A stretch of DNA of 12,930 nucleotides, taken from the IMG/VR virus record IMGVR_UViG_2675903661_000019, positions 1-12,930 of that record, one strand, 5' to 3'. Both the position numbers and the translations under genes were made by a program. This DNA comes from a virus. Taxonomy: Duplodnaviria; Heunggongvirae; Uroviricota; Caudoviricetes. Below, piece after piece: positions 1-12,930 of the stretch. Position 1 is the first letter of the stretch, and each line of letters begins with the position of its first letter. The notes under the pieces were generated by a model, which was given only the letters and a program-made list of their open reading frames with translations, did no database searches and was not told the DNA's origin.

Positions 1-173
1 TGTCAGTTATCATCTTCGGTTACGGTTATCGGCAGAACGCCCTGCCGCTGACAAGAGCTTATTTGCCTGACCAATCTACTCCACATGATAGATAACTATC
101 ATTTATAACATTTCATTGATTAGTCTTTATTTTTCATTGCGTTACAAATAACACCCCAGTCAAAAACAGCGAA

Positions 174-197
174 ATTAACTACACCATTAACTACACC
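174..197. repeat. tandem direct repeat 2 x ATTAACTACACC
   Basis: Perfect 12-bp tandem duplication at 174-185 and 186-197. Confidence 0.6.
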
Positions 198-203
198 GTT
201 TCA

Positions 204-231
204 CGAACAATATCGAACAACCACGAACAAA
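204..231. repeat. three helically phased GAACAA repeats, second copy of the capsid-leader motif
   Basis: GAACAA at 205, 215, 225 (10-bp spacing); 17-bp identity with 7618-7634; preceded by a tandem 12-mer at 174-197. Confidence 0.6.
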
Positions 232-291
232 GATCAACACGCTTTAACCGTTATCATTTTCCGGCTATCCGTTATGAAGCTGGTGGATGTT

Positions 292-319
292 CCCCGATAT
301 GGGGATCCCCATAACGGGG
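292..319. repeat. 28-bp near-perfect palindrome
   Basis: CCCCGATATGGGGATCCCCATAACGGGG, centred on GGATCC, followed by a T7 run at 329-335. Confidence 0.5.
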
Positions 320-580
320 CTACCTGGCTTTTTTTCCGGTTAACCTTTAATCAGGCTGGTGGGCTTTACCTGTTTTGTAGGAGTGGTCATTCTGCCCGAC
401 CGCGCATTTTTGCGCTATCGGGCATATCAAACAGTTACCTCGCCGACTTCCTCAAATTGAGGTTTCCGAAAATATCAGCGGGTTAGCGATTAAGCTGACG
501 AGTAATTAAACTGCGAAAATTTCGTAGTTTGTGAATATATTCCGGCCTGCTGGTTAACAGTCCTCAGATGTGAGGGATGT

Positions 581-626
581 AGCCAGCGCAATTTTGCGCT
601 TTGCTTTAATCTCAGTAAGTTACCGC
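581..626. repeat. 46-bp direct repeat, copy 1 (contains GCGCAATTTTGCGCT hairpin motif)
   Basis: AGCCAGCGCAATTTTGCGCTTTGCTTTAATCTCAGTAAGTTACCGC; 45/46 identical to 717-762. Confidence 0.7.
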
Positions 627-716
627 GCCAATTTCCGCAGTCTGTGTAAATTGGGAAGAATCAACGGGTTAGGCCTTAATCATCTGCGTAAACATAAGTA
701 ATCATAATGATCATTC

Positions 717-762
717 AGCCAGCGCAATTTTGCGCTTTGCTTTAATCTCAGTGAGTTACCGC
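717..762. repeat. 46-bp direct repeat, copy 2 (overlaps 3' end of the 93-aa ORF)
   Basis: AGCCAGCGCAATTTTGCGCTTTGCTTTAATCTCAGTGAGTTACCGC; a third, shorter copy of the GCGCA-N5-TGCGCT core is at 402-416. Confidence 0.7.
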
Positions 763-1037
763 CGCAACCGTTCCGGCTTCTTCCAGTGGTACGTGATTTT
801 CTCCTTCTCCCGATACATCTCCACGCGGCGACGGTATGTCAGCAACTCAAGGACTCTGGTTCGTATGTTGCGCATATCCACGCCGTTAAGCTCAATACCA
901 TCACGGCGCATCACCTCAGCAACAACACGCGCATAATTTTCGGCTGTCACGCTGTCCGGCTGCGTGGTCTGTTCGTCAGCCTGCTGGCTGATTCCAGAGA
1001 CGCGGCGGATTAATCGCAGTATTTCGGCTTCTGTCAT
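756..1037 (-). CDS. hypothetical protein (93 aa) immediately downstream of large terminase
   Basis: Minus-strand ORF; ATG at 1037 lies 14 nt after the terL stop with GAGG about 9 nt upstream; basic C-terminus; last codons overlap the 46-bp direct repeat copy at 717-762. No family recognised. Confidence 0.45.
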   Translation of the reverse strand: MTEAEILRLIRRVSGISQQADEQTTQPDSVTAENYARVVAEVMRRDGIELNGVDMRNIRTRVLELLTYRRRVEMYREKEKITYHWKKPERLRR

Positions 1038-1050
1038 GCTGCTGACCTCA

Positions 1051-2712
1051 TTACACCCCGCTAAATTCTTCCAGTTTCTGGCGGTGGCTGTCGCTTATAT
1101 CAAAAGCAAAATCCTCATGCTCTGCCTGGAATGTACCAAACGCCATCAGCGCCGCTACGCTCGGGTCTATCTTGTTCGGTGATTTTTTCTTGTTCGGCTT
1201 GATATTGGCGTTCGCGTCACTCTGCATCACGACGTTACTCATCGACCAGGACAACACCGGATCGCCACGATGCACAATCACCCTGCGGTTAACAAAAACT
1301 TCGAACGATTTCGCCGCCGGACTGAATCTGAGGTAGGTTTGCGGGAACGGCTCCACCTCAAAACCAGCCCCCTGTAATTGCGTCCTGAGATGCGTGGCGT
1401 TCCACGTATCAAAGCCCACCAGCCTGATATTAAATTTCTCCGCATCCTGCATGATGTCATCTCTGATCCGGTCGTAATCAATGCAGTCACCTGGCGTTGT
1501 GCGTATCCAGCCCGCTTTAGCCCACTGGCGATAGACAGCGCGGTTTTTATTGGCGGGGTTCTGTAGCTGGAACTCCGGCAGATAATGACGGGAAACCAGC
1601 ATGATATTTTTACCGACCGGAAAGGCATAGCACACGCTGGAAATATCGCTGGTTGATGATAAGTCCAGCCCCGCGTAACACTCCTGCCCGTGTAAATCTT
1701 CCTCCGTGAACGTTCCGGCACACTCAGCCCATGCGCCGTTACCCATCCACGGGGTAGCCCCCTGGCACCAGATATTAAATCGCTTTGTCATCATCTCCAC
1801 CCATTGCGACGGAATACCCCGCGCTTTCTGGATGGTTGAGGCCAGTTTTTCACGATCCACGGAAACATCGATGTTAGGGTTAGCCTTTATCCACATCGCC
1901 GGATCATCAACCTCGTTTTCGTCGTCCAGCTCGTAAATCAGCACAAAAATTGAATCGTTGACCTCTTCGCCGTCCAGGATCTGGCAGCAATAATCATAGT
2001 GCTGTTTACAGGTTGAAACGACGTTACTGCCCGATGTGGTAATGGCAAATAACAGCCCTTCGGGACGTGCGCCCATCCCCAGCTCAAGCGCGGAATAAAC
2101 GCCGTTATCGGGGTGTAGGTGGTATTCGTCCACGATGGAAAGGCTGGGGTTTGTTCCCTCGATGGTTGCCGCTTTTGCTGCCAGCGGCTTTAACAGGCTG
2201 TTGCTTTTCGGGTGCATCACCTTGTGGGCCTGAATATTCACCCGCCTGCGTAACGGTCGGGATAAAAGGCACATCTGACGCGCATCATCAAAAACGATCC
2301 GCGCCTGGTCACGGCTCACCGCTGCGGTGTAAATATCCTGCTGCCCGTTCTCCATAATCAGAAACCAGTTAGCCAGAATCGCGGCGGTCGTGGATTTCGC
2401 ATTTTTGCGCGGCACTTCGATAAAGGCGCTCGTGTATTTGCGCCGTCCGGTGGCCTTAACCTTAAAGCCGAGGATGCACGCAAAGGCGAACTGCTGCCAC
2501 GGCTCCAGCTCAATGGGTCTGCCACGCATCGGCCCTTTTACGTGCGGGCACACCCTGGAAAAGGCAATAAACCGCTCCACAACCTCACGATCGAACGTGT
2601 AAAGGGGGCTTTCAAGGTCCGAAAAGTACCGTTTAACGGCCTGTTTCAGCCGTTTACAGGCCGGAATTTTGCCCGTTTTTACGTCTTCTGCGTACTTATT
2701 CCAGGCGGTCAA
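1051..2712 (-). CDS. terL: terminase large subunit (HK97-like, Terminase_1 type)
   Basis: 553-aa ORF; deviant Walker A-like PRKNAKST and Walker B-like LSIVDEYH near the N-terminus, long C-terminal nuclease-size region; apparent TTG start at 2712 with AGAGGA about 5 nt upstream; overlaps terS 3' end by 17 nt. Confidence 0.85.
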   Translation of the reverse strand: MTAWNKYAEDVKTGKIPACKRLKQAVKRYFSDLESPLYTFDREVVERFIAFSRVCPHVKGPMRGRPIELEPWQQFAFACILGFKVKATGRRKYTSAFIEVPRKNAKSTTAAILANWFLIMENGQQDIYTAAVSRDQARIVFDDARQMCLLSRPLRRRVNIQAHKVMHPKSNSLLKPLAAKAATIEGTNPSLSIVDEYHLHPDNGVYSALELGMGARPEGLLFAITTSGSNVVSTCKQHYDYCCQILDGEEVNDSIFVLIYELDDENEVDDPAMWIKANPNIDVSVDREKLASTIQKARGIPSQWVEMMTKRFNIWCQGATPWMGNGAWAECAGTFTEEDLHGQECYAGLDLSSTSDISSVCYAFPVGKNIMLVSRHYLPEFQLQNPANKNRAVYRQWAKAGWIRTTPGDCIDYDRIRDDIMQDAEKFNIRLVGFDTWNATHLRTQLQGAGFEVEPFPQTYLRFSPAAKSFEVFVNRRVIVHRGDPVLSWSMSNVVMQSDANANIKPNKKKSPNKIDPSVAALMAFGTFQAEHEDFAFDISDSHRQKLEEFSGV

Positions 2713-3052
2713 GCTCGTCCTCTTCTTCTGTTTCCGGTGGATTTTTACGGCGGCTTATCGGGTCAAAACCGAGCAAGGAGGCCATTTTTATCATCACTCT
2801 TTCAGCGTCGGATTTTGCGCTTAATGCGGGGTTTCTGCTCTCGCCGCCCTGACTGTTAACAATGATGAACCCGCGCGCCGCAAGGTCTGCAACGGCTTTC
2901 CGGTAAATGGAGTAGTTGACACAATACAGTTCCAGATTGCTCCAGTCGGCGGGGGTCAGGTCTCCCCGTTCCGCAAGCTGCCGCGATTTTTCCCGCCACT
3001 GCTTCACGGCGATATCATCCAGGTAGGCGGGGGCTTTCGGTGGTCTTGCCAT
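2696..3052 (-). CDS. terS: terminase small subunit (P27-like)
   Basis: 118-aa ORF directly upstream of and overlapping terL; N-terminal MARPPKAP and acidic C-terminal tail typical of P27-family small terminases paired with HNH and HK97-type TerL. Confidence 0.75.
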   Translation of the reverse strand: MARPPKAPAYLDDIAVKQWREKSRQLAERGDLTPADWSNLELYCVNYSIYRKAVADLAARGFIIVNSQGGESRNPALSAKSDAERVMIKMASLLGFDPISRRKNPPETEEEDELDRLE

Positions 3053-3120
3053 GCTTATTTTTTCGCCAGATTATTTTTCAAAAAATTCCCGTGCATAAAA
3101 ATTTGAGGAGGCGTTCGGTT

Positions 3121-3170
3121 CTGGGCGGGGTCGGGTTCGTCCTGAAAACTCCCCCCACCCCGTCCGGCTG
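3121..3170. other. candidate cos site region between HNH and terS
   Basis: GC-rich imperfect dyad GGGCGGGGTCGGG ... CCCCCCACCCCG inside the 289-bp non-coding gap between HNH stop (3342) and terS start (3052), the usual cos position in HNH-dependent cos-type HK97-like modules. Confidence 0.3.
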
Positions 3171-3341
3171 CCTCATCAGCGATTGCGGAAACATTCCATA
3201 ACCTCGCGGTCACGGTCGTTTAATCGCGTCGCTGTGATGCGTTCTGCGCGTCCTGATGCTTTATCTTTATGCCCTGTTTCCTGTGCCTTCCATGCGTCAC
3301 GCTGCCTTATAAGTCCACGGATAAGGCGGTTTTGTTCCCGC

Positions 3342-3782
3342 TCATTCATCAGCGCCATACATCCAGTTATTGCGGTTAGCGGCCCGTTCTTCCTCCTCAC
3401 GGAATCCACCCGCAGCACGCTTGTTTTTTGTGGACGGATCAAGCCATTTCGTTTTCTGGTTATGACACGCCTGGCACAATGGCTGATGATTCCACTCAGG
3501 CCAGAAGAGAACATCATTACCGCCATCGATTGGGATAATGTGATCCACCACCACGGCGGGCGTGTATATTCCTTTTTCCAGGCAATGCGCACATAACGGG
3601 TTTTTACTCAGATACATGGCGCGGTATTTCTCCCACTGCCTCGTATACCCTCGCTCCCTGCTGCTGCCTCTCCGGCTGTCCTGCTGCTGGCGTGCGCTGC
3701 GTCTGTGCTCCTCACACTTGCCGGACTTCACGCGCCTGTTGCAGCCTGGTTCTGTACATCGTCTTAATGGTTGCCACGGCAT
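3342..3782 (-). CDS. HNH endonuclease (packaging-associated)
   Basis: 146-aa ORF with Cys-rich N-terminus (CTEPGC, CEEH) and HNH core VVDHIIPIDGGND...LCQACHNQKT; sits upstream of terS as in cos-type HK97-like packaging modules; start overlaps stop of the upstream connector gene. Confidence 0.85.
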   Translation of the reverse strand: MPWQPLRRCTEPGCNRRVKSGKCEEHRRSARQQQDSRRGSSRERGYTRQWEKYRAMYLSKNPLCAHCLEKGIYTPAVVVDHIIPIDGGNDVLFWPEWNHQPLCQACHNQKTKWLDPSTKNKRAAGGFREEEERAANRNNWMYGADE

Positions 3783-4078
3783 CAGTACACCCCCACATCA
3801 CGGTAAGCCGTCCAGAGTGCGCCAATCGTCATGGGTACGTGTGTTTTTGCGTTATCCGCGACAATCTGGCGATTCTCATACAGGTGAGCGATAAACATCA
3901 TGCAGCCAATCTTTATGGCTGGCGTGAACTCCAGCCCGTCATCAAAGCGCCTGCCTATGTGTATCTGGCACGCCTCAAGCGATGCGGCAATGTATCCGCT
4001 GATTAACTGGTCTTCCTCGTCGCCATCGATGCGGCAATGGAGTTTCACTTCTTCCAGGGTGATAAGTTCTTCTGTCAT
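3782..4078 (-). CDS. head-tail connector protein, gp6-like
   Basis: 98-aa ORF beginning MTEELITLEEVKLHCRIDGDEEDQLISGYIAAS, the characteristic N-terminal signature of gp6-like head-tail connector proteins; ATGA start/stop overlap with the upstream gene. Confidence 0.75.
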   Translation of the reverse strand: MTEELITLEEVKLHCRIDGDEEDQLISGYIAASLEACQIHIGRRFDDGLEFTPAIKIGCMMFIAHLYENRQIVADNAKTHVPMTIGALWTAYRDVGVY

Positions 4079-4413
4079 TTTTCCGCGCCCTCACGACAAA
4101 GAATTTCAAGGCGTGTCCTGGCGGCATCCGGCAGCGGCTGCCCGATGATATTCAGTACACGCCCCGCCAGCGGCCCCGTATTGACCTTTATCCGGCTGGT
4201 GGCGTTGATGTCCTTCCGGTACCGTATCCAGATCCTTACGGTACCAATCGCCAGCTCTGCACCCGATGAAATGGCCTCCTTGCTGCTGACCATGTTCACG
4301 CTTGCCCAGAGTGTGTGACCGTCCTCCCACGTTTCGAGTATTTCGCCCGTCATGGCTCTGGTCTGTTTCAGGGTCTGAATCGTTACCCTGTCACGCAGTC
4401 GCCCTATGTTCAT
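4075..4413 (-). CDS. head closure / head-tail joining protein (gp7 or SPP1 gp16-like)
   Basis: ORF extends to 4455, but the internal ATG at 4413 gives MNIGRLRDRVTIQ..., the typical N-terminus for this family, and overlaps the portal stop as ATGA. IRYRKDI and LEILCREG motifs fit head-closure proteins. Start choice is uncertain. Confidence 0.7.
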   Translation of the reverse strand: MNIGRLRDRVTIQTLKQTRAMTGEILETWEDGHTLWASVNMVSSKEAISSGAELAIGTVRIWIRYRKDINATSRIKVNTGPLAGRVLNIIGQPLPDAARTRLEILCREGAEK

Positions 4414-5621
4414 TCCGGTTTTTCTCCCTCGCTGATTTTTACTTCCTGTTTCCATACCTGGCTGAACTCATCACCACCATCACGCGGAGACAACCCTTCT
4501 CGTTCGCGGGCTTCGTTCGGGCACATAACACCGGATTTGATGCCTCGCTCATAGGTGGCAAAGCGTTCGCCAGGTGTGGCCCGTAACAGGTCCGCGCTGT
4601 CAAACTCCACCTGATACCGGATACCAGGTACAGGCGAGACCACCAGCAAGGCGTTTTTTATCTGCTGCTCAAAGTTCGCCAGCCACGGGCGCATCGTCAT
4701 GGTGAGAAATGCGCGGCTTGCCTCGCTGAAATTGCTGTAGGTGCTGTTGCTGTATTCCTGCAGAAAAATCGGCGAGACGTTGAACATTCGGGCGATGTCT
4801 TCAATGGTGAAGCGACGGGAGGCCAGCCATTCGGCGTCCTGGTTACTCATGCCCAGCTGCTGGTAACTCATGCCCCCTTCAAGGATGGGCGTTTTTCCGG
4901 CGTTTCTGGCCCCTTTGTAGCGTTCCAGTGCGGCTAATGCCTGTTTGCCTTTCACGCCGTCCAGCCATTCGCCTGACGTGATAACCCCTGCCGCCATCAT
5001 GCCATCACGCATCACGCTCGCGCCGTGGCGTTGTTGGGCCAGCCCAAGCCCCAGCGATTCGCGGCAGATGGTTACAGGTGAGCGCCCCATAAAGCCGTCA
5101 TCCGTGGAGTAACGAAGGTGAAGTACTTCCCACGGTAAATAGTTGCGGGTGTTTCCGGTGTAGGCGTCAGTGATGCAATAGCGCCAGTTGTGTTCTCCTG
5201 TCTGCTCCACGTTCACCGACTGCGGCGGGTAAGGATGTAAAGCCGCCGGAAAACCATCACGCCCCCACTGAATCACCGCGTAAGCATTACCGTTTAACAG
5301 GCAGTGGCGGATCATCATTCGCTTAAACTGGTAGGGGGTTTGCCATGCGTTCGGGCGCTCGTTGAGGATATGATCGACCGGATGAGAATCAAGCCACTCG
5401 CGGGCCTCCTTCCCCTTCTCATTGCGTACCAGGTACAGGTAGCATGGCATAGTAGCCACCGCCTCAGAGATGACCGTGACGGCGTTCATGACGGCGGGGA
5501 GTGATTCCGCTGTCCCCGATGATACGTACTCACCCGCCCCCGTGTTCGATGTGCCAGCCAGCGCCATAAATTCATCAAGCGTCATGCTGCGCTGCTCTTT
5601 TTTTCTTCTGAAAGGCCACAT
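4410..5621 (-). CDS. portal protein (HK97 family)
   Basis: 403-aa ORF, size and sequence character of HK97-type portals; ATG at 5621 is 1 nt after the protease stop and preceded by GGGGGTG; lies between protease and connector genes. Confidence 0.85.
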   Translation of the reverse strand: MWPFRRKKEQRSMTLDEFMALAGTSNTGAGEYVSSGTAESLPAVMNAVTVISEAVATMPCYLYLVRNEKGKEAREWLDSHPVDHILNERPNAWQTPYQFKRMMIRHCLLNGNAYAVIQWGRDGFPAALHPYPPQSVNVEQTGEHNWRYCITDAYTGNTRNYLPWEVLHLRYSTDDGFMGRSPVTICRESLGLGLAQQRHGASVMRDGMMAAGVITSGEWLDGVKGKQALAALERYKGARNAGKTPILEGGMSYQQLGMSNQDAEWLASRRFTIEDIARMFNVSPIFLQEYSNSTYSNFSEASRAFLTMTMRPWLANFEQQIKNALLVVSPVPGIRYQVEFDSADLLRATPGERFATYERGIKSGVMCPNEAREREGLSPRDGGDEFSQVWKQEVKISEGEKPE

Positions 5622-5622
5622 A

Positions 5623-6180
5623 TCACACCCCCGCTAAATCCGCCCACCAGCGGCGATTATCCGCACGCGGCATTTTTTCGGGGTGCTGCTCATACAGGGA
5701 ACGGCGGGCCAGCTCCACGCCGGAATCGGGGTAAGCCGGTACGGATGTAACGGTAATTTCGTACAGTTCCGCCACCAGCACGGTGCGCACGCATGGATCT
5801 GTTGTGGTATCCCATACATCCTTACGGGAACGAAAGCCAAAGCTCATGCCGGATATATCACCACGTTTAACCAGTTCGATAACGTCACGCCCTGTGCTGG
5901 TATCCGGTGGGGTAAGTTCAAAGCGTAACCCTGTGTCGTCCTCTTCCAGTTTCAGCGTGCCGGAACGGGTGCGCCCCAGTAACATGCTGTGGTCATGCTC
6001 ATACAGGCCGCGAACGTCATTACCCGCCGCAAGCCACTCAGTAAACGCCCCCCGCTGGAATTTTTCGTAAAACTCCCCCCATAACAGTTCCGAAAGGTTA
6101 TCCCAGCGAACAACGTAGCCTGTAAGCGTGTTGCTGGCGCTGGTGGTGATTTCCGATGACCGGATTTCCATACTCTTCAT
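5623..6180 (-). CDS. prohead maturation protease (HK97 gp4-like)
   Basis: ORF is open to 6294, but the ATG at 6180 has GGGTGA about 8 nt upstream and lies after the capsid stop. Protein carries LYEHDHSMLLGRT and GMSFGF motifs typical of HK97-family prohead proteases. Confidence 0.8.
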   Translation of the reverse strand: MKSMEIRSSEITTSASNTLTGYVVRWDNLSELLWGEFYEKFQRGAFTEWLAAGNDVRGLYEHDHSMLLGRTRSGTLKLEEDDTGLRFELTPPDTSTGRDVIELVKRGDISGMSFGFRSRKDVWDTTTDPCVRTVLVAELYEITVTSVPAYPDSGVELARRSLYEQHPEKMPRADNRRWWADLAGV

Positions 6181-6206
6181 AATTTTTTTCACCCATAAAA
6201 CACTAA

Positions 6207-6224
6207 AGGGGCTTTTTAGCCCCT
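6207..6224 (-). promoter_or_regulatory. GC-rich hairpin between capsid and protease genes (possible attenuator)
   Basis: Minus strand AGGGGC-TAAAAA-GCCCCT followed by an interrupted T-rich tract (TTAGTGTTTTA), in the 55-nt gap between capsid stop and protease start. Confidence 0.4.
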
Positions 6225-6235
6225 TCTGTATGCTG

Positions 6236-7393
6236 TTAATCGTCGTCCTGTGGCAGTTCCAGAATCTTGATCGCGTTCGAATCCACCACGCCACCGCCTA
6301 AATATTTTTGCGTGAAAATTTTGATGAATCCTGGTTCTGTCAGGTTGTCCGGTCTGGTGCGAACACCTGTTTCGTGATCAACGATGTAGTAACCGCGTTT
6401 AAAGTCGCCCAGGGCAATAACGTTATCCGGCATAAACTCCAGATATTCGACCGGAAGGCCCAGCAACGTATCAGGATCACCCGCCTGTAAACGGTCACGC
6501 CAGATGTAATCACCGTTCGCGTTCTTCACCTTCTGGAGTTTTGCCGCCGTCGTGGAGTTAACCACCCAGACCGCGTTTTTGCGGTATTTTTTACGTAATG
6601 CAAATTTCAGGTCGATCAGCGGGTCCGCAGATGTCCACGCCAGAGATTCGGAAGGTTTAATTACCTGCAACGTACCAAAATCACGCTCTTTGTCGTTCTT
6701 CTCTGCACGGGGTACGGATAAAAAGCCTTTTGCTTTTTTGTCACCGTCGCCCACAACCAGATCGCTTTCTTCGGTTTCCGTGAAGGTGTCGCCAATCTCG
6801 CCCGTCAGCCATGAAAGGATGTCCACATCGGAAAAATCCACGATTTCCTGCGTGGTGCGCGGGTACGCATAGACCGGATACAGCTTAATGCTCACCTCGT
6901 TAATCTGCGGGGTGCTGGTCTGTTCGCGTGCCTTACCCTCTTCACCGTGGTTAACGGTCGCACCGCCAGCGGAAACAAGCTGCTTAAACTCGTTGCTGCT
7001 GATTTTCTTCACGGTACAGATGCGGCGCATGGTGGATTCATCCGTCAGCATTCGCATGATTTCGGTGTTCAGTTCGGGGATAACGGTATAACCACCATCA
7101 GCGGGAACGCCTGTACTCAATGCGCGGGTTTCACCTGTCAGAATGTAGTGACGTAGTTCGGCGGGGTCAGTGGTCTGGCTGTTTTTGCCTGGTTTACTGC
7201 GCTCTTCGTCAGCAACGGCCTCAAGGCGGGAGATGTCTTTATCGAGTGATTCAGCTTTAGCGCGTAATTCGTCAAATTTTGCGCCCTCAGCATCGTTAAG
7301 ACTGCGGTTTTCTTTTTCCGCGTTCTCCAGCATGTCGCGCATCTGATTTTTAATGGCGGTTTTCTGCTGGCGTAATTCGATTATTCTCGGCAT
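6236..7393 (-). CDS. major capsid protein (HK97 fold) with N-terminal coiled-coil delta/scaffold-like region
   Basis: 385-aa ORF; charged, coiled-coil-like first ~70 aa (EKENRSLNDAEGAKFDELRAKAESLDKDISRLEAVADEE) followed by a capsid-size body; ATG at 7393. Confidence 0.85.
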   Translation of the reverse strand: MPRIIELRQQKTAIKNQMRDMLENAEKENRSLNDAEGAKFDELRAKAESLDKDISRLEAVADEERSKPGKNSQTTDPAELRHYILTGETRALSTGVPADGGYTVIPELNTEIMRMLTDESTMRRICTVKKISSNEFKQLVSAGGATVNHGEEGKAREQTSTPQINEVSIKLYPVYAYPRTTQEIVDFSDVDILSWLTGEIGDTFTETEESDLVVGDGDKKAKGFLSVPRAEKNDKERDFGTLQVIKPSESLAWTSADPLIDLKFALRKKYRKNAVWVVNSTTAAKLQKVKNANGDYIWRDRLQAGDPDTLLGLPVEYLEFMPDNVIALGDFKRGYYIVDHETGVRTRPDNLTEPGFIKIFTQKYLGGGVVDSNAIKILELPQDDD

Positions 7394-7430
7394 AAAAAAA
7401 GTCCTGGGGTTAAGTAAGGAACTCCAGGAC
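7394..7430 (-). promoter_or_regulatory. hairpin plus U7 tract immediately upstream of the capsid start codon, sequestering the SD
   Basis: Minus strand reads GTCCTGG-(16 nt loop)-CCAGGAC-TTTTTTT-ATG; the only SD-like element (AGGA) lies in the 3' arm of the stem. Confidence 0.5.
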
Positions 7431-7483
7431 GCGGCAAAAACTCAACCGTTTTTCATAAGGGAATCAGCAATCGCACCGATCGT

Positions 7484-7531
7484 TTTCCCGCCTGGTAATG
7501 AATATTGGCGAGCACATTAACAGGCGGGAAA
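7484..7531. promoter_or_regulatory. 11-bp perfect inverted repeat with 26-bp spacer in capsid operon leader
   Basis: TTTCCCGCCTG at 7484-7494 and CAGGCGGGAAA at 7521-7531. Confidence 0.45.
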
Positions 7532-7603
7532 GTGGCCCCAGCGTCCTGGCACCACGGGCGAGAATAATCATGATTCAGTTCGGGTAAAATATGCCGATCC
7601 GCT

Positions 7604-7634
7604 CAGTGAACAACGTGGAACAACCACGAACAAA
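7604..7634. repeat. three helically phased GAACAA repeats upstream of capsid operon
   Basis: GAACAA at 7608, 7618, 7628 (exact 10-bp spacing); 17-bp core GAACAACCACGAACAAA (7618-7634) is identical to 215-231. Confidence 0.6.
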
Positions 7635-7640
7635 TAATTT

Positions 7641-7674
7641 ACAAAAAATAACAAAAAGCCGGATTGCTCCGGCT
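7641..7674 (-). terminator. intrinsic terminator after the 74-aa gene
   Basis: On the minus strand: stem AGCCGGA / TCCGGCT with 4-nt loop, followed by TTTTTGTTATTTTTT; lies 10 nt after the stop at 7685. Confidence 0.75.
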
Positions 7675-7684
7675 GTATGGGTGC

Positions 7685-7909
7685 TCAGTCCCTGATCCCT
7701 TTCAGAAATTCTATCAATGCATCTGTCTGTTCAGGATTTACCGCCAGCATTTCACCGGATAGCGCGCAACGAACAAAACCATGATGATCCTTTTCAATCA
7801 GCGCCCCCGTTTCCAGGAATGCGCGGTAATCAGTGATGTTCATCGTCTCCATGTTGTCAGCATGGTATTTATCACGCTGTTTTAATATCTCATCAAATTT
7901 CGTCGGCAT
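7685..7909 (-). CDS. hypothetical acidic protein (74 aa)
   Basis: ORF is open to 7987, but the ATG at 7909 has GAGGA about 7 nt upstream (MPTKFDEILKQ...). Stop at 7685 is followed by an intrinsic terminator. No family recognised. Confidence 0.5.
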   Translation of the reverse strand: MPTKFDEILKQRDKYHADNMETMNITDYRAFLETGALIEKDHHGFVRCALSGEMLAVNPEQTDALIEFLKGIRD

Positions 7910-8003
7910 TGTTTTTTCCTCTGTTGTGTCTGTTTGTTTCAGATAGTAACTATGCCGGACCGTGACGAAAAGCCAGTAGTGCGCCATACCATTTCAAATG
8001 ACG

Positions 8004-8028
8004 CAAAAAAAGCCGGATTGCTCCGGCT
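8004..8028 (-). terminator. intrinsic terminator after the 82-aa gene (near-identical copy of the 7641-7674 terminator)
   Basis: Same AGCCGGA-GCAA-TCCGGCT hairpin followed by a T7 run on the minus strand; about 24 bp identical to the other copy. Confidence 0.75.
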
Positions 8029-8050
8029 GCGTGGTGTGGTTCTGATATTC

Positions 8051-8299
8051 CTACTCAGCTAATTTGCTCAGCCCCATGTCTGCATAAGTGCGATTTACTG
8101 CATTTCTCAGGTCTGCGTAGTTCTCCGTTGGCGGCTCCGGTGGCCTCTGTGCCTTCCTGGAACATTCCAGCCGTCGCATCGTAACCTGATGCCGTTCCTT
8201 GTCTATCTCCACCAGTTGCATGACTTCACCCCATCGCGCCGACGCCCTCCGGTAAAAGCCTTTTGCCTCGAGTTCCTCCGCTATGCGGTCATGTACCAT
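8051..8299 (-). CDS. hypothetical protein (82 aa)
   Basis: ATG at 8299 is preceded by GAGGGGG, which overlaps the SSB stop codon (TGAGGGGGTGACGATG); ORF ends at 8051 and is followed by an intrinsic terminator. The longer track ORF (to 8419) would overlap SSB by 110 nt. No family recognised. Confidence 0.5.
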   Translation of the reverse strand: MVHDRIAEELEAKGFYRRASARWGEVMQLVEIDKERHQVTMRRLECSRKAQRPPEPPTENYADLRNAVNRTYADMGLSKLAE

Positions 8300-8309
8300 C
8301 GTCACCCCC

Positions 8310-8720
8310 TCAGAACGGAATACCGTCACCGTAAGGGTCATCGCCTCCCGCTGGTGGCTGATTACCCTGTGTGCCTGTGGTTTTGCGTCTGTTCCCGCCA
8401 GGACGTGCCGCACGGGCACTGATTACGCTGTCTGCAATAACCTGATAACCCTGCCGCGTTTCCCCGTTCTGTCCGGTCCACTGGCTGACCTGCATCGTGC
8501 CGGATACGCTGGCAACGTCGCCTTTTTGATGTTTAGCCAGGAAGTCGGCCTGCTTACCAAATGCGATGACCGATAGCCATAACGTAGCCTGCCCATCCTG
8601 CGCCTGACTACATGGCAACGATACCGCCATACGTGCCAGCGTCATTGGTGTGCCCTTGCTGGTCTGTTTTACCTGCGGGTCGTCCACCAGCCGCCCGTAA
8701 GCTGCTATCTGTGCTGTCAT
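8310..8720 (-). CDS. ssb: single-stranded DNA-binding protein (SSB-like)
   Basis: 136-aa ORF; OB-fold-like core alignable by eye to E. coli SSB (conserved Trp in SQWTGQNG matching RKWTDQSG), Gly/Pro-rich linker and C-terminal acidic tip DDPYGDGIPF resembling the SSB DDDIPF tail; ATGA overlap with the upstream gene. Confidence 0.75.
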   Translation of the reverse strand: MTAQIAAYGRLVDDPQVKQTSKGTPMTLARMAVSLPCSQAQDGQATLWLSVIAFGKQADFLAKHQKGDVASVSGTMQVSQWTGQNGETRQGYQVIADSVISARAARPGGNRRKTTGTQGNQPPAGGDDPYGDGIPF

Positions 8721-9031
8721 GATTCCACCTCTCCGGTTTTAACGTTGATGGTTGTTACCTGTTCCGCTTCGGCAATCTCCCGTTCTGTCAGCGTGGCAAA
8801 GTTTGCCGCCGCCGTGGTCATGAATGCGCTTATCAGGTCGGGATGTTCCTTCGCGTATCCTTCCCGCGTGTGGCGGTCTATCGTTCTGATTGCCACCTTT
8901 AAGGTGTGCTCAGTCATGTCTAACGCTTTATATTTTGGCTCTGTTCTGTCTCTGCGAATTTTGGTCATTTGTCGCCCCTGATTCATGTTTTCGGCTGGCA
9001 TGTTTGTTAAGTGATTTTGATGTATGCGCAT
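8717..9031 (-). CDS. hypothetical protein (104 aa)
   Basis: ATG at 9031 preceded by GAGGGGG about 9 nt upstream; first gene downstream of the iteron region; translationally coupled to SSB. No family recognised. Confidence 0.5.
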   Translation of the reverse strand: MRIHQNHLTNMPAENMNQGRQMTKIRRDRTEPKYKALDMTEHTLKVAIRTIDRHTREGYAKEHPDLISAFMTTAAANFATLTEREIAEAEQVTTINVKTGEVES

Positions 9032-9078
9032 TTATTTTCACCCCCTCGTTTAAAAAGTTTTTAGTTGTGCCTCCCCCC

Positions 9079-9302
9079 CCTCTACCCATCTACCCGAATG
9101 CTCATCATGTCAGTAATGGCGCGGCTTTCAGCGGGTAGATAGCTTTTTGGGCTCCTCTACCTGCCGTCTACCCTGCTACCTGAAACTGATAAAATCAGGT
9201 AGAAGAGGTAGAGAGCTTTTATTAGCCTTCTACCTGGCCCTCTACCCACTTATCATGTTGAATAATATGTATTTATTTCATTCAGGTAGATGGGGTAGAG
9301 GG
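9079..9302. repeat. iteron array, candidate origin of replication
   Basis: About 12 copies of CCTCTACCC / GGGTAGAGG-type motifs (core TCTACC / GGTAGA) in both orientations within ~220 bp, interspersed with AT-rich stretches (9250-9283), directly downstream of the primase stop at 9316. Confidence 0.7.
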
Positions 9303-9315
9303 CTTTTACAAAAAA

Positions 9316-11070
9316 TTATAAAAACGCGTCGCAATCGTCTGTTGTAATTGCGTTGGTCTGCGTTACTCCCTTAACTTTTCGCGTAATATATTCATGCCCG
9401 TAAACTTTCGCCGCTGGCTTCATGGCCTTGCTGAACTCAGCCACGTTTAGCGGTTTGCTCCTGCCTGCGTATGCCATAAACGCCAGATAGACGCGGTAAA
9501 GGCTGTTCCTGGTCGTGTACTTCACTGAATCGCCACCGCCCCCCATCATCAGGCCGCGCGCTTCCTCCAGAAAATTCAGGAACTGGCAAAACTCAATAAC
9601 CGGATCCGTCTGTTGCTTTATTGCCAGTGCTTCATCACCGTCACGCTGTTCCAGTAGTAAAGCCCGTGCCTTCTCAGGGTCGGTAAAGTTCGCCAGCAAG
9701 CGGCGGATAATAACGGGGATTTCAGCCGCAATCTTTTCCGGTAGTTCCCTGTCTTTTTCGGCCTCACTGACGATATTGTCGAAACGGAAAATCACGCGAC
9801 GACGTGCCACACCTCCGGCCCGTTCGGTGAATATCATCGGGTTATTGTTGGTCGCCAGCACCACCGCCCTGATTACAGCCGTGAAACGCTTTTCGTATTT
9901 CGGGTTAATTTCCACGGGGTCACCGCCCGTGATTTTCTTGATGCCCGTTCCTTCGCCTGTATATTTCGGCTGGTCAGCCAGGACGATAAGACGACTCCCG
10001 ACAACCTGCGCACGTCCACCAGCATCATCAAGCGATGTCATTTCAGCGCTTACCGTGTTCTGTTTCCCTGCCAGAAGGCTGGCTATGTGTGTGAATGTAC
10101 TTTTACCGCTCCCGCCGTCTCCGGTGGCCTCAATAAACATCTGCCAGTCGTACCGGTTCGCCATAATCATGTACAGCGCGGCACATATACGCATCATCTT
10201 GCGCGGGTCTTTTCCGGCTGCGTGCTCAAGCCATTTATGAAAGTTTGGCGCGTTATCGCGGATGTTCTCCCCTGGTGCTGGTGGCGTGTACTCAATACCG
10301 TTGTGCGTGGTGATCCAGTTCTCCGGCGTGTGCGGGGAAAATTCCCCCGTTTTCAGGTCAAGCGCACCATTGGCAAACGGCAGCAAATCGCCGGACGGCT
10401 CGCCCATTGGTTCGGCAATAACTTTTAACGCTTCCACGGCGTTATTGATTACGCGCTTGCTGAAAGTGGCCCTGTGCTCTGAATAGATCGCCACCATTTC
10501 GCGGCTAAGTTCCATTGTACTGACCGGACACCATACCCCGCCGCGCCATACGTGGACGATTTCACTTTCAGGATGTACGCAAATGCCATCAAAGCGCCCG
10601 GCAAGCAGCTGCGCGCGCTCACTGTCCGCCATCTGCGAAAGTTGTGCCTTTTGCTTTACCGGAAGCTCAATGACCAGACCATCAGAAAGATTCTGGCGCT
10701 CACGGGCCAGATATTCGCGCCAGTTCTCCACCTTCTGAACGTGCATTCCCTCAGGGTAAAAATTTGCATCCTGTACGCCTGCCGCCGCCAGTTTCTGACC
10801 AATCGCCTTGATCATTACTGGCTCAAGATGTCCGGCCCTGAATATGCGTACTGATTTTCTGCCTTCCGGCACAATTTGCAGCTTATCCAGTTCGGATAAC
10901 TGCTGCTCCCCAAGCCACACAGGAGGCTCATTATCTCCGGCCATACGCGCGTCATGTTCCTGCCATTGTTTTGCGTGTGACCAGGCATCACTACCCGCAA
11001 AAATAATGACTTCTGTTTCTTTGTGTTTTATGCCGCGTGACTGCTGTTTTACGTTCGGTGCCAGTTTCAT
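9316..11070 (-). CDS. primase/helicase, P4-alpha / D5-like (satellite Pri-Rep type)
   Basis: 584-aa ORF with central P-loop NTPase Walker A GDGGSGKST and Walker B-like LIVLAD, N-terminal primase-like region; ATGA overlap with the upstream 99-aa gene; iteron-rich AT-containing region begins right at its stop. Confidence 0.8.
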   Translation of the reverse strand: MKLAPNVKQQSRGIKHKETEVIIFAGSDAWSHAKQWQEHDARMAGDNEPPVWLGEQQLSELDKLQIVPEGRKSVRIFRAGHLEPVMIKAIGQKLAAAGVQDANFYPEGMHVQKVENWREYLARERQNLSDGLVIELPVKQKAQLSQMADSERAQLLAGRFDGICVHPESEIVHVWRGGVWCPVSTMELSREMVAIYSEHRATFSKRVINNAVEALKVIAEPMGEPSGDLLPFANGALDLKTGEFSPHTPENWITTHNGIEYTPPAPGENIRDNAPNFHKWLEHAAGKDPRKMMRICAALYMIMANRYDWQMFIEATGDGGSGKSTFTHIASLLAGKQNTVSAEMTSLDDAGGRAQVVGSRLIVLADQPKYTGEGTGIKKITGGDPVEINPKYEKRFTAVIRAVVLATNNNPMIFTERAGGVARRRVIFRFDNIVSEAEKDRELPEKIAAEIPVIIRRLLANFTDPEKARALLLEQRDGDEALAIKQQTDPVIEFCQFLNFLEEARGLMMGGGGDSVKYTTRNSLYRVYLAFMAYAGRSKPLNVAEFSKAMKPAAKVYGHEYITRKVKGVTQTNAITTDDCDAFL

Positions 11071-11366
11071 TTTTTACCCCTGAATCCGTTAATCATGGTT
11101 TTCAGCTTCTGGATGTTTTCCCGTGCTCTGGCGTTGCTGGTGGGCACGTTATGCGGCGCGGTCTGTACCAGAGAAAAATCACGCCGGAACTGATAAACAG
11201 GCATCACGCAATCATATTCGTAACCTTCACGGCGGTAAGTTACGCACCGTCCCGCCACACCCTTAATCATTACCGTGCCGCCGTACTGGTCGCGGTAAAT
11301 ATCACCGCGCGTAAATTTAGGGTGAGTGTTGCCACTGGCAGTTAAGCCAGAATATTTAAGTTTCAT
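11067..11366 (-). CDS. hypothetical protein (99 aa)
   Basis: ATG at 11366 with GGAGA about 9 nt upstream; stop overlaps the primase start; position resembles small early genes that precede primase in P4-like elements. No family recognised. Confidence 0.5.
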   Translation of the reverse strand: MKLKYSGLTASGNTHPKFTRGDIYRDQYGGTVMIKGVAGRCVTYRREGYEYDCVMPVYQFRRDFSLVQTAPHNVPTSNARARENIQKLKTMINGFRGKK

Positions 11367-11371
11367 TATTT

Positions 11372-11599
11372 TTATTCTCCGGTGTGGGGCGCTTTATTAT
11401 TTTCGATAATATCCATCGCCTTATCCAGTTCATCAATAACAGGCGATAGTAATGTCTGAATGGCTGCAAACATTAATGACGAAGATTCTTCGCCAGATTC
11501 CGGCGCTTCAATTAATTTGCCTAACAACGCATTCATTTCGCGCGCTTTAATTAATGCGTTTTCAGAATGAATAAGAACATCAAAGGGTATTTTATGCAT
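11372..11599 (-). CDS. hypothetical acidic protein (75 aa)
   Basis: ATG at 11599 preceded by AGGGGGTGA; acidic, helical-looking sequence; first confidently coding gene of the leftward early operon. Confidence 0.5.
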   Translation of the reverse strand: MHKIPFDVLIHSENALIKAREMNALLGKLIEAPESGEESSSLMFAAIQTLLSPVIDELDKAMDIIENNKAPHTGE

Positions 11600-12056
11600 G
11601 ACTCACCCCCTGGCGAATACGGGCGACAAAAATCAGATGTGTGTGCGGCAGCTGGGCGCGTGCTTCGCCTTCTGTTGCTGCCGTGACGGTAAAGAGTGAT
11701 CTTTGTTTTTCCTGGCACTGCATAAAGCGCCAGACAAAGTAAGGGCGTGCGGATACAGCCATGTGAAAGGCTCCCAAAGTGAAATTAAGGAGTCTCGCTA
11801 CTACGCTGCTAAACGGGGTGGCGAGACGTAACAGGGTTAGCAGACTGGCACTTTGGGAACCAGCGAGCGCAAAGGCTCCCCCGTTACGCCCCGCCATAAT
11901 GCGGGTATGGGTAGGCTTACGGACACAAAAAAACCGCATATCGGAATGTAAGCGGCTGTCCGCCAAAGTATTCAGGCTGCTAAACCCGGTCGCCATGTGG
12001 GCGACGGGGGAAGCATACAGCCCCGTTATAATTTTTTGCAAGCGGTTTTTACGCAT
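11592..12056 (-). CDS. candidate ORF (154 aa, very basic), doubtful; may instead be structured leader RNA
   Basis: ATG at 12056 with CAGGGG 8 nt upstream; 3' end overlaps the next start as CATGCATAA. Its last ~50 codons and the downstream junction are duplicated in the preceding segment (12049-12200). Composition (Ala/Arg/Leu/Ser-rich, few acidic residues) is atypical. Confidence 0.25.
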   Translation of the reverse strand: MRKNRLQKIITGLYASPVAHMATGFSSLNTLADSRLHSDMRFFCVRKPTHTRIMAGRNGGAFALAGSQSASLLTLLRLATPFSSVVARLLNFTLGAFHMAVSARPYFVWRFMQCQEKQRSLFTVTAATEGEARAQLPHTHLIFVARIRQGVSHA

Positions 12057-12330
12057 GATGTGACCCCTGACGAATACGGGCGGCAAATACAGCAACACAA
12101 CCAGACGGGCAACGGCTACGCGCTTCGCGTTCCGTCCAGGCGGTTACGTGGATGATTTGAGATTCTCCGGCACTCAGGGCCAGAAAACGCCAGATGTATT
12201 TATTCAGGTTGTGCGAGTCCCGCCCTTGCGGGTGTGTGATATGATTTCTCATAGCTACCTCGATACTTTCGCTATCGTTGGTGGTCAGAGGCTGCGAAAG
12301 GACGGCAATCCTTTTCAGCCTCGTTTGCAT

Positions 12331-12430
12331 TGAGTGATAAACACTCAGCTGGATTCCAGTATAATCACTAAGTGGAATCCACTTCAAGCGTTTTGTTTTG
12401 GTCTTTTTCGTGTATACTGGATTCCAGTAA
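12331..12430. promoter_or_regulatory. divergent overlapping promoters with three TGGAWTCCA palindromic operators
   Basis: TGGATTCCA at 12350-12358 and 12418-12426, TGGAATCCA at 12373-12381; plus-strand -10 TATAAT at 12360-12365 and TATACT at 12413-12418; minus-strand TTGAAG, 18 nt spacer, TATACT (rc of 12358-12387); palindrome GAGTG-ATAAA-CACTC at 12332-12346. Confidence 0.6.
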
Positions 12431-12448
12431 TCACAAAGGGAACCAGAA

Positions 12449-12628
12449 ATGGAAAGAGACCATATCAATAACAAATCACAGAAATTACAGGCTCGCGCCC
12501 CGCATGAAGTTGTTGAGGCTATGGAGCAAGTAAAAGAAACAGGCGAGAGCACTGCGCAATTTATCGTTACAGCCATGCGAGGCGAGATCAAACGCCGCCA
12601 GCGCCGTAAGGCCAAAGAATCAGAATAA
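12449..12628 (+). CDS. small ribbon-helix-helix-like DNA-binding regulator (59 aa)
   Basis: Not in the ORF track (below 60 aa). ATG at 12449 with AAGGGA upstream, TAA at 12626-12628. KLQARAP (beta strand), HEVVEAMEQVKETGESTAQFIVTAM (helix, G-x-S turn, helix) then a basic tail fits the RHH pattern; transcribed divergently from an operator-rich region. Confidence 0.55.
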   Translation: MERDHINNKSQKLQARAPHEVVEAMEQVKETGESTAQFIVTAMRGEIKRRQRRKAKESE

Positions 12629-12685
12629 TCACTATCAGCGCCGTGGTGTGAGGTACTACGGCGCATTGCTTTACAGGGCAGTACC

Positions 12686-12913
12686 ATGACCAACAACACA
12701 CTATCACCAATACAAGACACGCAAACGCAAGATGATGAAATCATCCGGCAAAGGCAGTCAGAAGCCTGCGCCAGAGTTGAGGAAGAACTAACCAGAACAA
12801 AAATACCACCACCAGCGCCGCGCTTAATGCCACCAGAAAAATTTGCCCTTGAAGATTTTGTCGAGAAATACCCACGGCGGTTAAAAGCCACTAAAAACCG
12901 ACCGCCTGGCTGA
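12686..12913 (+). CDS. hypothetical protein (75 aa)
   Basis: ORF downstream of the RHH gene on the same strand; weak SD (AGGG); Pro-rich centre. No family recognised. Confidence 0.4.
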   Translation: MTNNTLSPIQDTQTQDDEIIRQRQSEACARVEEELTRTKIPPPAPRLMPPEKFALEDFVEKYPRRLKATKNRPPG

Positions 12914-12930
12914 TAGCCTTGTCCACCAGC

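Follow-up and report, generated by a model that had tools for sequence, protein, structure and literature searches.

Predicted terminators bound an optional gene unit between the early and capsid modules of an Escherichia coli satellite

Here we analyse a 12,930-nucleotide stretch of a viral record assigned to the Caudoviricetes (IMG/VR record IMGVR_UViG_2675903661_000019, positions 1 to 12,930), hereafter called the window. The window carries an E. coli capsid-forming phage-inducible chromosomal island (cf-PICI), a satellite whose transfer is predicted from its genes to depend on a helper. Between its replication genes and its capsid operon, at positions 7,641 to 8,299, lie two small genes for proteins of 82 and 74 amino acids (aa), each followed by a copy of the same predicted terminator (T1 and T2). 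Our results favour, with a rough probability of 0.6, the reading that the early (replication) unit meets the capsid/packaging operon in this interval. The boundary would consist of a PerC-family regulator gene with T1 and an optional unit of the 74-aa gene (orf74) with T2, and the terminator would be the joint between modules. Neither PerC nor orf74 is structural; both are non-structural accessory genes.

Results

A duplicated terminator at the early-capsid boundary

The 18-nt hairpin AGCCGGAGCAATCCGGCT, with arms AGCCGGA and TCCGGCT around a GCAA loop, occurs in two exact copies on the minus strand (8028 to 8011 and 7674 to 7657), while 0.01 copies are expected from 200 shuffles. The stem has 7 bp with 5 GC pairs, and the loop is of the GNRA type. 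In both copies the GC-rich stem-loop runs directly into a U-tract, which reads T7 in T1 and T5-G-TT-A-T6 in T2. Both copies were detected by the terminator scan, and RNA folding gave about -12.6 to -15.7 kcal/mol (z = -2.6 and -3.4). T1 starts 22 nt past the stop of the 82-aa open reading frame (ORF), and T2 10 nt past that of the 74-aa ORF. The repeat around the hairpin (D10) extends over 28 nt, 26 of them identical, with a period of 354 nt. Together, T1 and T2 are predicted intrinsic (Rho-independent) terminators. The initial annotation of this DNA, made from the letters and the ORF list, had already placed both ORFs ahead of near-identical terminators and between the replication genes and the head module. 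Our analysis bears out both points, with primase and ssb on one side and the major capsid gene on the other.

Sibling elements were collected by an IMG/VR scan for exact matches to the hairpin. This returned 80 loci, in 73 of which both sides of the terminator are visible. orf74 is present in 31 of the 73 (roughly 40-50% of siblings). The late module is HK97-type in 34 loci (14 with orf74), lambda-like in 33 (17 with orf74) and ClpP-major capsid protein-type in 6 (none with orf74). In each orf74-positive element there is one additional terminator copy and no more, 353-355 bp from the first where both are visible. A T1-type terminator sits after the last early gene, whichever gene that is. Five of the 73 elements lack this PerC, among them locus L056, which has no ssb, PerC or orf74 and yet carries the terminator after its last early gene.

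Individual comparisons locate the junctions. The E. coli O157:H16 element (L014) shares 97-99% identity with the window in its capsid, protease and portal genes but lacks orf74. A single terminator stands there between PerC and the capsid leader, with a T1-type 5' side and the 3' flank of T2. Presence or absence of orf74 makes no difference to the late leader. In O157:H7 (L015), the order PerC-T1-orf74-T2 is kept and divergence is complete directly after the T-run; the module beyond T2 is a different, lambda-like morphogenesis set with capsid, decoration protein and TerS genes. L016 has a third module type, with a ClpP-protease/capsid fusion, behind PerC and the terminator. A genome-wide E. 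coli search gave alignments to O157:H7-type elements that begin at 7653, the first base of the T2 repeat. The lambda-like module has a further copy of the same hairpin, before terS.

The orf74 unit is absent exactly at the terminator in elements lacking orf74, and the terminator is the point of homology break among elements that share the same early module and carry three unrelated morphogenesis modules. Since this short sequence is common to otherwise different modules, we infer that the terminator may serve as a recombination joint. The optional unit, made of the leader, orf74 and T2, is one repeat period long, and its GC content is 45.5%, compared with 55% in PerC, 58% in ssb and 52% in the element. 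The earlier proposal that the duplicated terminator marks a modular cassette stands for this unit, whose junction lies inside the terminator, and falls for PerC, which is packed behind ssb.

The 82-aa gene encodes a PerC/PchE-family regulator

The 82-aa protein had been described as resembling no recognised family, a view that has to be abandoned. It matches Pfam PerC (PF06069) over positions 1-77 of the 90-position profile with 119.4 bits (cut-off 22.6; E = 7.9e-35), and the PchE-type family to which it belongs has been studied experimentally. It also falls into phrog_994, and its orthologues are named 'PerC family transcriptional regulator' in RefSeq. Members of the family are small proteins (about 80-100 aa) on prophage-like elements or plasmids of Enterobacteriaceae, and the window protein is likewise small and carried on a PICI.

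The gene has an ATG start and the ribosome-binding site GAGGGGG. Because its start lies 10 nt past the ssb stop, it is the last cistron of the early operon and no free-standing cassette. Its ratio of non-synonymous to synonymous substitution rates (dN/dS) is 0.17, compared with 0.16 for ssb, which indicates a real gene under purifying selection. Its identity to the 90-aa form carried by O157:H7-type elements, which lie between phoQ and roxA, is 78-80%. There is almost no variation in residues 1-57, and two alleles of the C-terminal tail exist. This PerC is found at 864 places in 762 complete E. coli genomes.

PchE is the PerC homologue on OI-51/CP-933C of O157:H7 (PMC3378721), and PerC alleles in E. 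coli PICIs have been noted before (PMC6092414). PchE is a repressor of csgD/curli and adhesion that increases the expression of flagellar genes; its own expression is reported to have a low steady level in uninduced cells and to fall on SOS or prophage induction (PMC7369912). According to the citing passage in PMC11773190, the PerC-like genes of the PICIs EcCIEDL933 and EcCICFT073 gave no LEE1 activation or effect on LEE1 fusions, and that of another PICI repressed LEE1.

A natural variant was observed in a Shigella flexneri locus (L002, 5173-5331), in which an in-frame deletion joins ssb residues 1-25 to PerC residues 54-82. Despite this ssb-PerC fusion, the locus retains orf74, both terminators and the capsid operon.

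orf74 is a widespread orphan gene

orf74 has an ATG start, the ribosome-binding site GAGGAA and a dN/dS of 0.14 (0.16 for ssb), and is a real gene under purifying selection. The protein matches the uncharacterised family phrog_1957 over its full length (E = 1.5e-39, positions 1-74 of 82). No function is assigned to this family. Few sequences belong to it. In an exhaustive search of 1.84 billion representatives, orf74 retrieved 23 proteins at E <= 0.001, about 21 of which look like genuine members; P0024 and P0029 are long repeat-protein matches and were discarded as spurious. Y28, D41, A56, Q61 and L69 are conserved in the family alignment. The alignment-based AlphaFold2 model reaches a mean predicted local distance difference test score (pLDDT) of 83.8, whereas the single-sequence model is poor (pLDDT 60).

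Searches with orf74 returned little else. Pfam gave sub-threshold hits only (DUF1398 and PDF2_C at E about 0.03-0.1), and DUF7002 was likewise sub-threshold in 5 of 22 family members. There was no NCBIfam match, no fold match, and no tblastn match in 50,697 phage records. No PADLOC-DB defence profile matched orf74 or PerC at E <= 0.01. A marginal PDB profile match to residues 82-121 of N.BspD6I (E = 0.005) was treated as chance. Complete E. coli genomes contain orf74 at 592 places in 539 of 5426 genomes (about 10%), O157:H7 OI-51 among them. Homologues also occur outside satellites, for example adjoining an Hcp-Tlde1 locus.

Distant cf-PICIs keep orf74 and vary the cargo behind it

Distant relatives were found by capsid-protein anchoring, and 5 cf-PICIs were examined. 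Four carry an orf74 homologue (31-44% identity), namely those of Rosenbergiella, Citrobacter amalonaticus and Gilliamella and one on a metagenomic contig. Each homologue is the last forward gene, after ssb, primase or origin iterons and before the capsid operon. Retained in four of five distant cf-PICIs, orf74 is more persistent than random cargo. The Erwinia element has neither orf74 nor PerC, and tblastn did not detect PerC in the distant genome loci L003-L006. In L003 and L020 the homologue is followed, on the coding strand, by an intrinsic terminator of unrelated sequence. In L004 the only hairpin after it lies between convergent genes, and in L006 no hairpin is evident after it.

In the distant elements the variable cargo occupies the space from orf74 to the capsid gene and is mostly encoded on the opposite strand (Table 1). 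A Pfam scan that covered L004 and L020 gave no match for their cargo proteins. The initial annotation had advised checking whether homologous slots hold different cargo, and in the distant relatives they do (L004, L005 and L020). This pattern agrees with the published description of the regions flanking the cf-PICI packaging module as variable and 'expected to encode immune systems' (10.1101/2025.02.11.637232).

The capsid-operon leader is long and structured

The capsid-operon leader is 258 nt long (7394-7651, minus strand). The promoter scan found no consensus sigma-70 promoter in this HK97-type late leader, and inspection by eye found no match to the sigma-54 motif TGGCAC-N5-TTGC. Three TTGTTC hexamers with 10-bp phasing, 20 nt past T2, form a candidate regulator-binding site or promoter region. 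The TTGTTC-N4 array recurs at 205-241, near the element end. In the annotated E. coli locus L001 and in L015, such arrays are present at both att arms and between int and the helix-turn-helix (HTH) gene (13142-13190, about 14552 and 7234 in L001; 11585, 12995 and 2007 in L015). In sequence the arrays resemble binding sites of the arm-type Int or AlpA/Xis kind. Since the arrays are common to the att arms and the capsid leader, a shared regulator of excision and capsid-operon expression is suggested. AlpA activates the PICI cycle in a helper-dependent manner (PMC6092414), and EcCIEDL933 reproduction has been promoted by overexpressing alpA (10.1101/2025.02.11.637232). Because AlpA activates the cycle, an AlpA/Int-type protein acting on the TTGTTC arrays is a plausible late switch, which we offer as a lead.

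The leader RNA (about 7394-7600, 216 nt) has a minimum free energy of -78.6 kcal/mol (z = -5.06). It contains a 17-bp inverted repeat and, abutting the capsid AUG, a terminator-like hairpin followed by U7. The Shine-Dalgarno sequence AGGA of the capsid gene lies inside the 3' arm of this hairpin (7431 to 7394) and is sequestered in the predicted fold. This structure may be involved in attenuation, antitermination or translational control.

The lambda-like late module is arranged differently. In L015 (about 5800-5990, minus strand), another bidirectional-looking terminator comes right after T2. A near-consensus promoter (TTGCAT-16-TATAAT) then follows and is overlapped by the palindrome TTGCATAAAATGCAA. 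This overlap implies repressor-type control of the lambda-like module, unlike that of the HK97-type leader.

Gene order, class and insertion site of the element

All window genes lie on the minus strand (Table 1). The capsid/packaging operon runs in the order capsid, protease, portal, connectors, HNH, TerS and TerL. L001, which is 95% identical, has the same genes together with an integrase and an HTH regulator; the integrase end of the window copy is outside the window. Primase, ssb and RgdR lie inside the window. By the RefSeq annotation of L001 and the tblastn matches, the capsid and packaging set is complete, and L001 has no tail or lysis genes. Islands of this class span 10-15 kb, with integrase and regulators at one end and a primase/replication module. 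This is the gene set of capsid-forming PICIs, which are helper-dependent and use only the tails of the helper (10.1101/2022.09.08.507074). The satellite context assumed at the outset is therefore confirmed and can be narrowed to a capsid-forming PICI.

Table 1 Features of the window and cargo of distant elements
Feature	Position	Strand	Remarks
P1-like c4/icd region		minus	first in transcription order
RgdR/DUF4222, 99 aa	11067-11366	minus	after the c4/icd region
Primase	9316-11070	minus	
104-aa ORF		minus	between primase and ssb
ssb, single-stranded DNA-binding protein	8310-8720	minus	penultimate gene of the early/replication operon; Pfam SSB E = 4e-17; RefSeq of homologous locus
PerC/PchE-family small transcription regulator, 82 aa	8051-8299	minus	last gene of the early operon; short C-terminal allele
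Predicted terminator T1	8004-8028	minus	would close the early operon; hairpin 8028->8011, then T7
orf74 leader, 94 nt	7910-8003	minus	conserved along with the cassette
orf74, 74-aa acidic protein (isoelectric point 5.0)	7685-7909	minus	phrog_1957; predicted fold alpha-alpha-beta3-alpha
Predicted terminator T2	7641-7674	minus	hairpin 7674->7657, then T-rich tail
Optional orf74 + terminator cassette, 354 bp	7653-8006	minus	leader, orf74 and T2; one period of repeat D10
Three TTGTTC hexamers	7608-7634	minus	candidate regulator-binding site or promoter region
17-bp inverted repeat/stem (I13), capsid leader	7484-7531	minus	-29.1 kcal/mol for the 76-nt stretch 7470-7545
Terminator-like hairpin, then U7	7394-7431	minus	abuts capsid AUG; -14.1 kcal/mol, z = -3.5
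HK97-type major capsid protein	6236-7393	minus	gene 1 of the capsid/packaging operon
L004 cargo	5307-5717	reverse	136-aa protein of TSRQGTDGRV-type repeats
L005 cargo	4577-5685		proteins of 230 and 139 aa
L020 cargo	6164-7470		proteins of 246 and 169 aa

Positions 1-106 of the window correspond to the K-12 DNA directly upstream of clpS, and the match stops at the 3' end of yljB. The satellite copy therefore sits between cspD/yljB and clpS, with the junction at 106. The insertion site differs from the phoQ-roxA site of the OI-51-type relatives.

Further observations concern other parts of the window. The 99-aa DUF4222 ORF upstream of primase has an RGD at residues 20-22 and corresponds to ECs1581, that is, RgdR, the OI-51 regulator of type III secretion and motility (PMC3378721). 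An identification of orf74 as RgdR was rejected on this ground. The Rfam C4 antisense RNA (RF01695) is found at 11814-11901 on the minus strand (71 bits, E = 1.5e-12), which points to a P1/P7-type c4/icd immunity module in the regulatory region of the satellite. It agrees with P1 DNA matches at 11804-11993 and with 'Icd-like' annotations in related loci. A 51-nt direct repeat (581-631 and 717-767, 94% identical, 136 nt apart) lies in the interval that separates the last satellite gene from the element end. It contains a plus-strand terminator-like hairpin, AGCGCAATTTTGCGCT, followed by T-rich sequence.

Discussion

Our results suggest a working model for the boundary. The PerC gene is the last of the primase-ssb operon, which T1 would close. 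T1 and T2 would stop early-operon transcription from entering the capsid operon and so insulate it, and the capsid operon would be under its own control through a structured, regulated leader. Recombination at the hairpin would in addition allow gain, loss or exchange of the orf74 unit and of entire late modules. PerC may be a host-directed accessory regulator like PchE, acting on curli, adhesion and flagella and standing outside the capsid machinery. orf74 may encode a small, acidic accessory protein that belongs to the early programme and binds other proteins.

Several points weigh against this model. Termination at T1 and T2 is predicted from sequence. The scan of the minus strand found no sigma-70-like promoter between T1 and orf74, so expression of orf74 may need read-through of T1, which would then be leaky and no insulator. 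The IMG/VR sample cannot prove the hairpin universal and is partly circular, because it was selected by the hairpin itself; the break points at 7653, which come from the independent E. coli search, mitigate this circularity. The pattern of presence and absence fits gain and loss of the unit alike. The C-terminus of the window PerC differs from that of the studied PchE. Finally, the proposed role of orf74 is read only from its charge, size, position and lack of matches. A more far-reaching version of the model, in which orf74 represents a new family of satellite early proteins acting on the helper or on the timing of the capsid programme and the terminator hairpin is a universal portable crossover site for shuffling small cassettes and entire capsid modules among E. 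coli PICIs, seems unlikely to us.

One alternative is that both genes were acquired independently, each together with its terminator, and are cargo that interferes with helper phages or defends against phages. In its favour, the variable region ahead of the packaging module has been described as 'expected to encode immune systems' (10.1101/2025.02.11.637232), distant elements do hold other cargo there, and orf74 with T2 behaves as a cassette whose GC is below that of its neighbours. However, neither protein has a PADLOC match, and PerC is a member of a known regulator family sitting 10 nt behind ssb rather than in a cassette of its own. The distant cargo genes lie downstream of orf74, mostly on the opposite strand, and are much larger, and the retention of orf74 in four of the five distant cf-PICIs is unlike random cargo. 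We regard this alternative as doubtful. The initial annotation had listed both genes as cargo or interference candidates. What survives of this is that they are accessory and satellite-borne and that the orf74 unit is modular; for interference or defence there is no PADLOC, Pfam or fold match.

PerC, with or without orf74, could also be the late regulator of the satellite, activating the capsid promoter or permitting read-through of T1, T2 and the leader hairpin. PerC belongs to a transcription-activator family and lies directly upstream of the morphogenesis module in elements of all three module types. The scan found no consensus sigma-70 promoter in the late leader, where a third terminator-like hairpin stands ahead of the capsid AUG. 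But the five siblings without this PerC, such as L056, have capsid genes about 99% identical, no PerC was detected by tblastn in L003-L006, and about half of the elements lack orf74 and have the same late leader. The lambda-like module has its own near-consensus promoter with a palindromic operator. PchE is expressed in uninduced cells and reduced on prophage induction (PMC7369912), and the known activator of the cycle is AlpA (PMC6092414). PerC as an obligatory late activator is rejected, since elements lacking PerC or orf74 have near-identical capsid operons, and a late-regulator role in general appears quite improbable.

The synteny of orf74 with the capsid gene in the Rosenbergiella, Citrobacter, Gilliamella and metagenomic cf-PICIs might suggest a core assembly factor of the capsid module, such as a scaffold, chaperone or decoration helper. 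This is contradicted because orf74 is absent beside near-identical capsid genes (capsid, protease and portal 96-100% identical to those of the window in L014, L023, L029 and others) and present beside a different, lambda-like capsid module. The terminator separates orf74 from the capsid operon, as does reverse-strand cargo in some relatives, and orf74 is also found outside satellites, beside the Hcp-Tlde1 locus. An assembly role is thus very unlikely. Coincidence, or a generic repeat irrelevant to gene organisation, is already refuted, for although short GC-rich hairpins are common (25 terminator-like sites in the window, 15.4 expected), an exact 18-nt match was expected only 0.01 times, dozens of loci have this hairpin at both of these positions, and the lambda-like module contains a third copy.

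We therefore prefer to see the interval as a boundary between the early unit and the capsid operon, with the terminator as its joint. The analysis corrects the annotation in that one of the two 'unknown' genes encodes a PchE-type regulator, a type with published effects on curli, adhesion and motility in enterohaemorrhagic E. coli (EHEC). Here such a regulator is carried on a mobile, capsid-forming satellite able to move between strains. orf74 emerges as a compact, well-delimited and widespread orphan, present in about a tenth of complete E. coli genomes. The shared terminator at the junctions offers a concrete, testable explanation of why E. coli PICIs are mosaic, combining one early module with three capsid modules. 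These findings do not overturn current views of satellites.

Comparison with known systems

The window PerC and the PchE of O157:H7 OI-51 (CP-933C) share a strong PF06069 match and occupy the same slot, after ssb and before the morphogenesis genes, in a P4-integrase-type satellite. They differ in that the window allele has 82 aa and a different, shorter tail (...GLSKLAE), whereas the PchE type has 90 aa.

The candidate late control can be compared with that of satellite P4. In Vis/AlpA-type control the same protein binds att and late promoters, which we use as a lead only. The likeness lies in the TTGTTC arrays of window-type elements, found at the att arms, in the int/HTH interval and in the capsid leader. 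The difference is that the sites here are candidates known from sequence, and that the alpA-like gene is outside the window. AlpA and P4 Vis have, moreover, been reported to have different roles (PMC6092414).

The variable flanking regions of cf-PICIs (He et al. 2025, 10.1101/2025.02.11.637232) correspond to the same slot before the capsid/packaging operon, with varying content. Unlike the immune systems expected in these regions, the window slot contains just a regulator gene and a 74-aa orphan, both on the forward strand, and no recognisable immune system. PICI-borne PerC genes and the variable accessory slots of cf-PICIs have both been described before. A role of the terminator as a joint was not found in the literature on cf-PICIs and PICI PerC genes cited here.

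The nearest relatives of the orf74 unit in organisation are phage morons. Morons, reportedly described by Juhala and Hendrix in 2000, are extra gene units with their own terminator, placed between conserved genes of lambdoid/HK97-like phages. Like a moron, the orf74 unit brings one small gene with an intrinsic terminator behind it; some genomes carry the unit, close relatives such as L014 lack it precisely, and its GC content differs from that of its neighbours. Unlike a moron, it has no promoter of its own that the sigma-70-like scan could find, it is flanked on both sides by the same terminator, which is outside the moron definition, and its host is a satellite and no phage. The terminator-bounded cassette, and the terminator as a putative module joint, are new, a small structural observation that stands closest to the phage morons.

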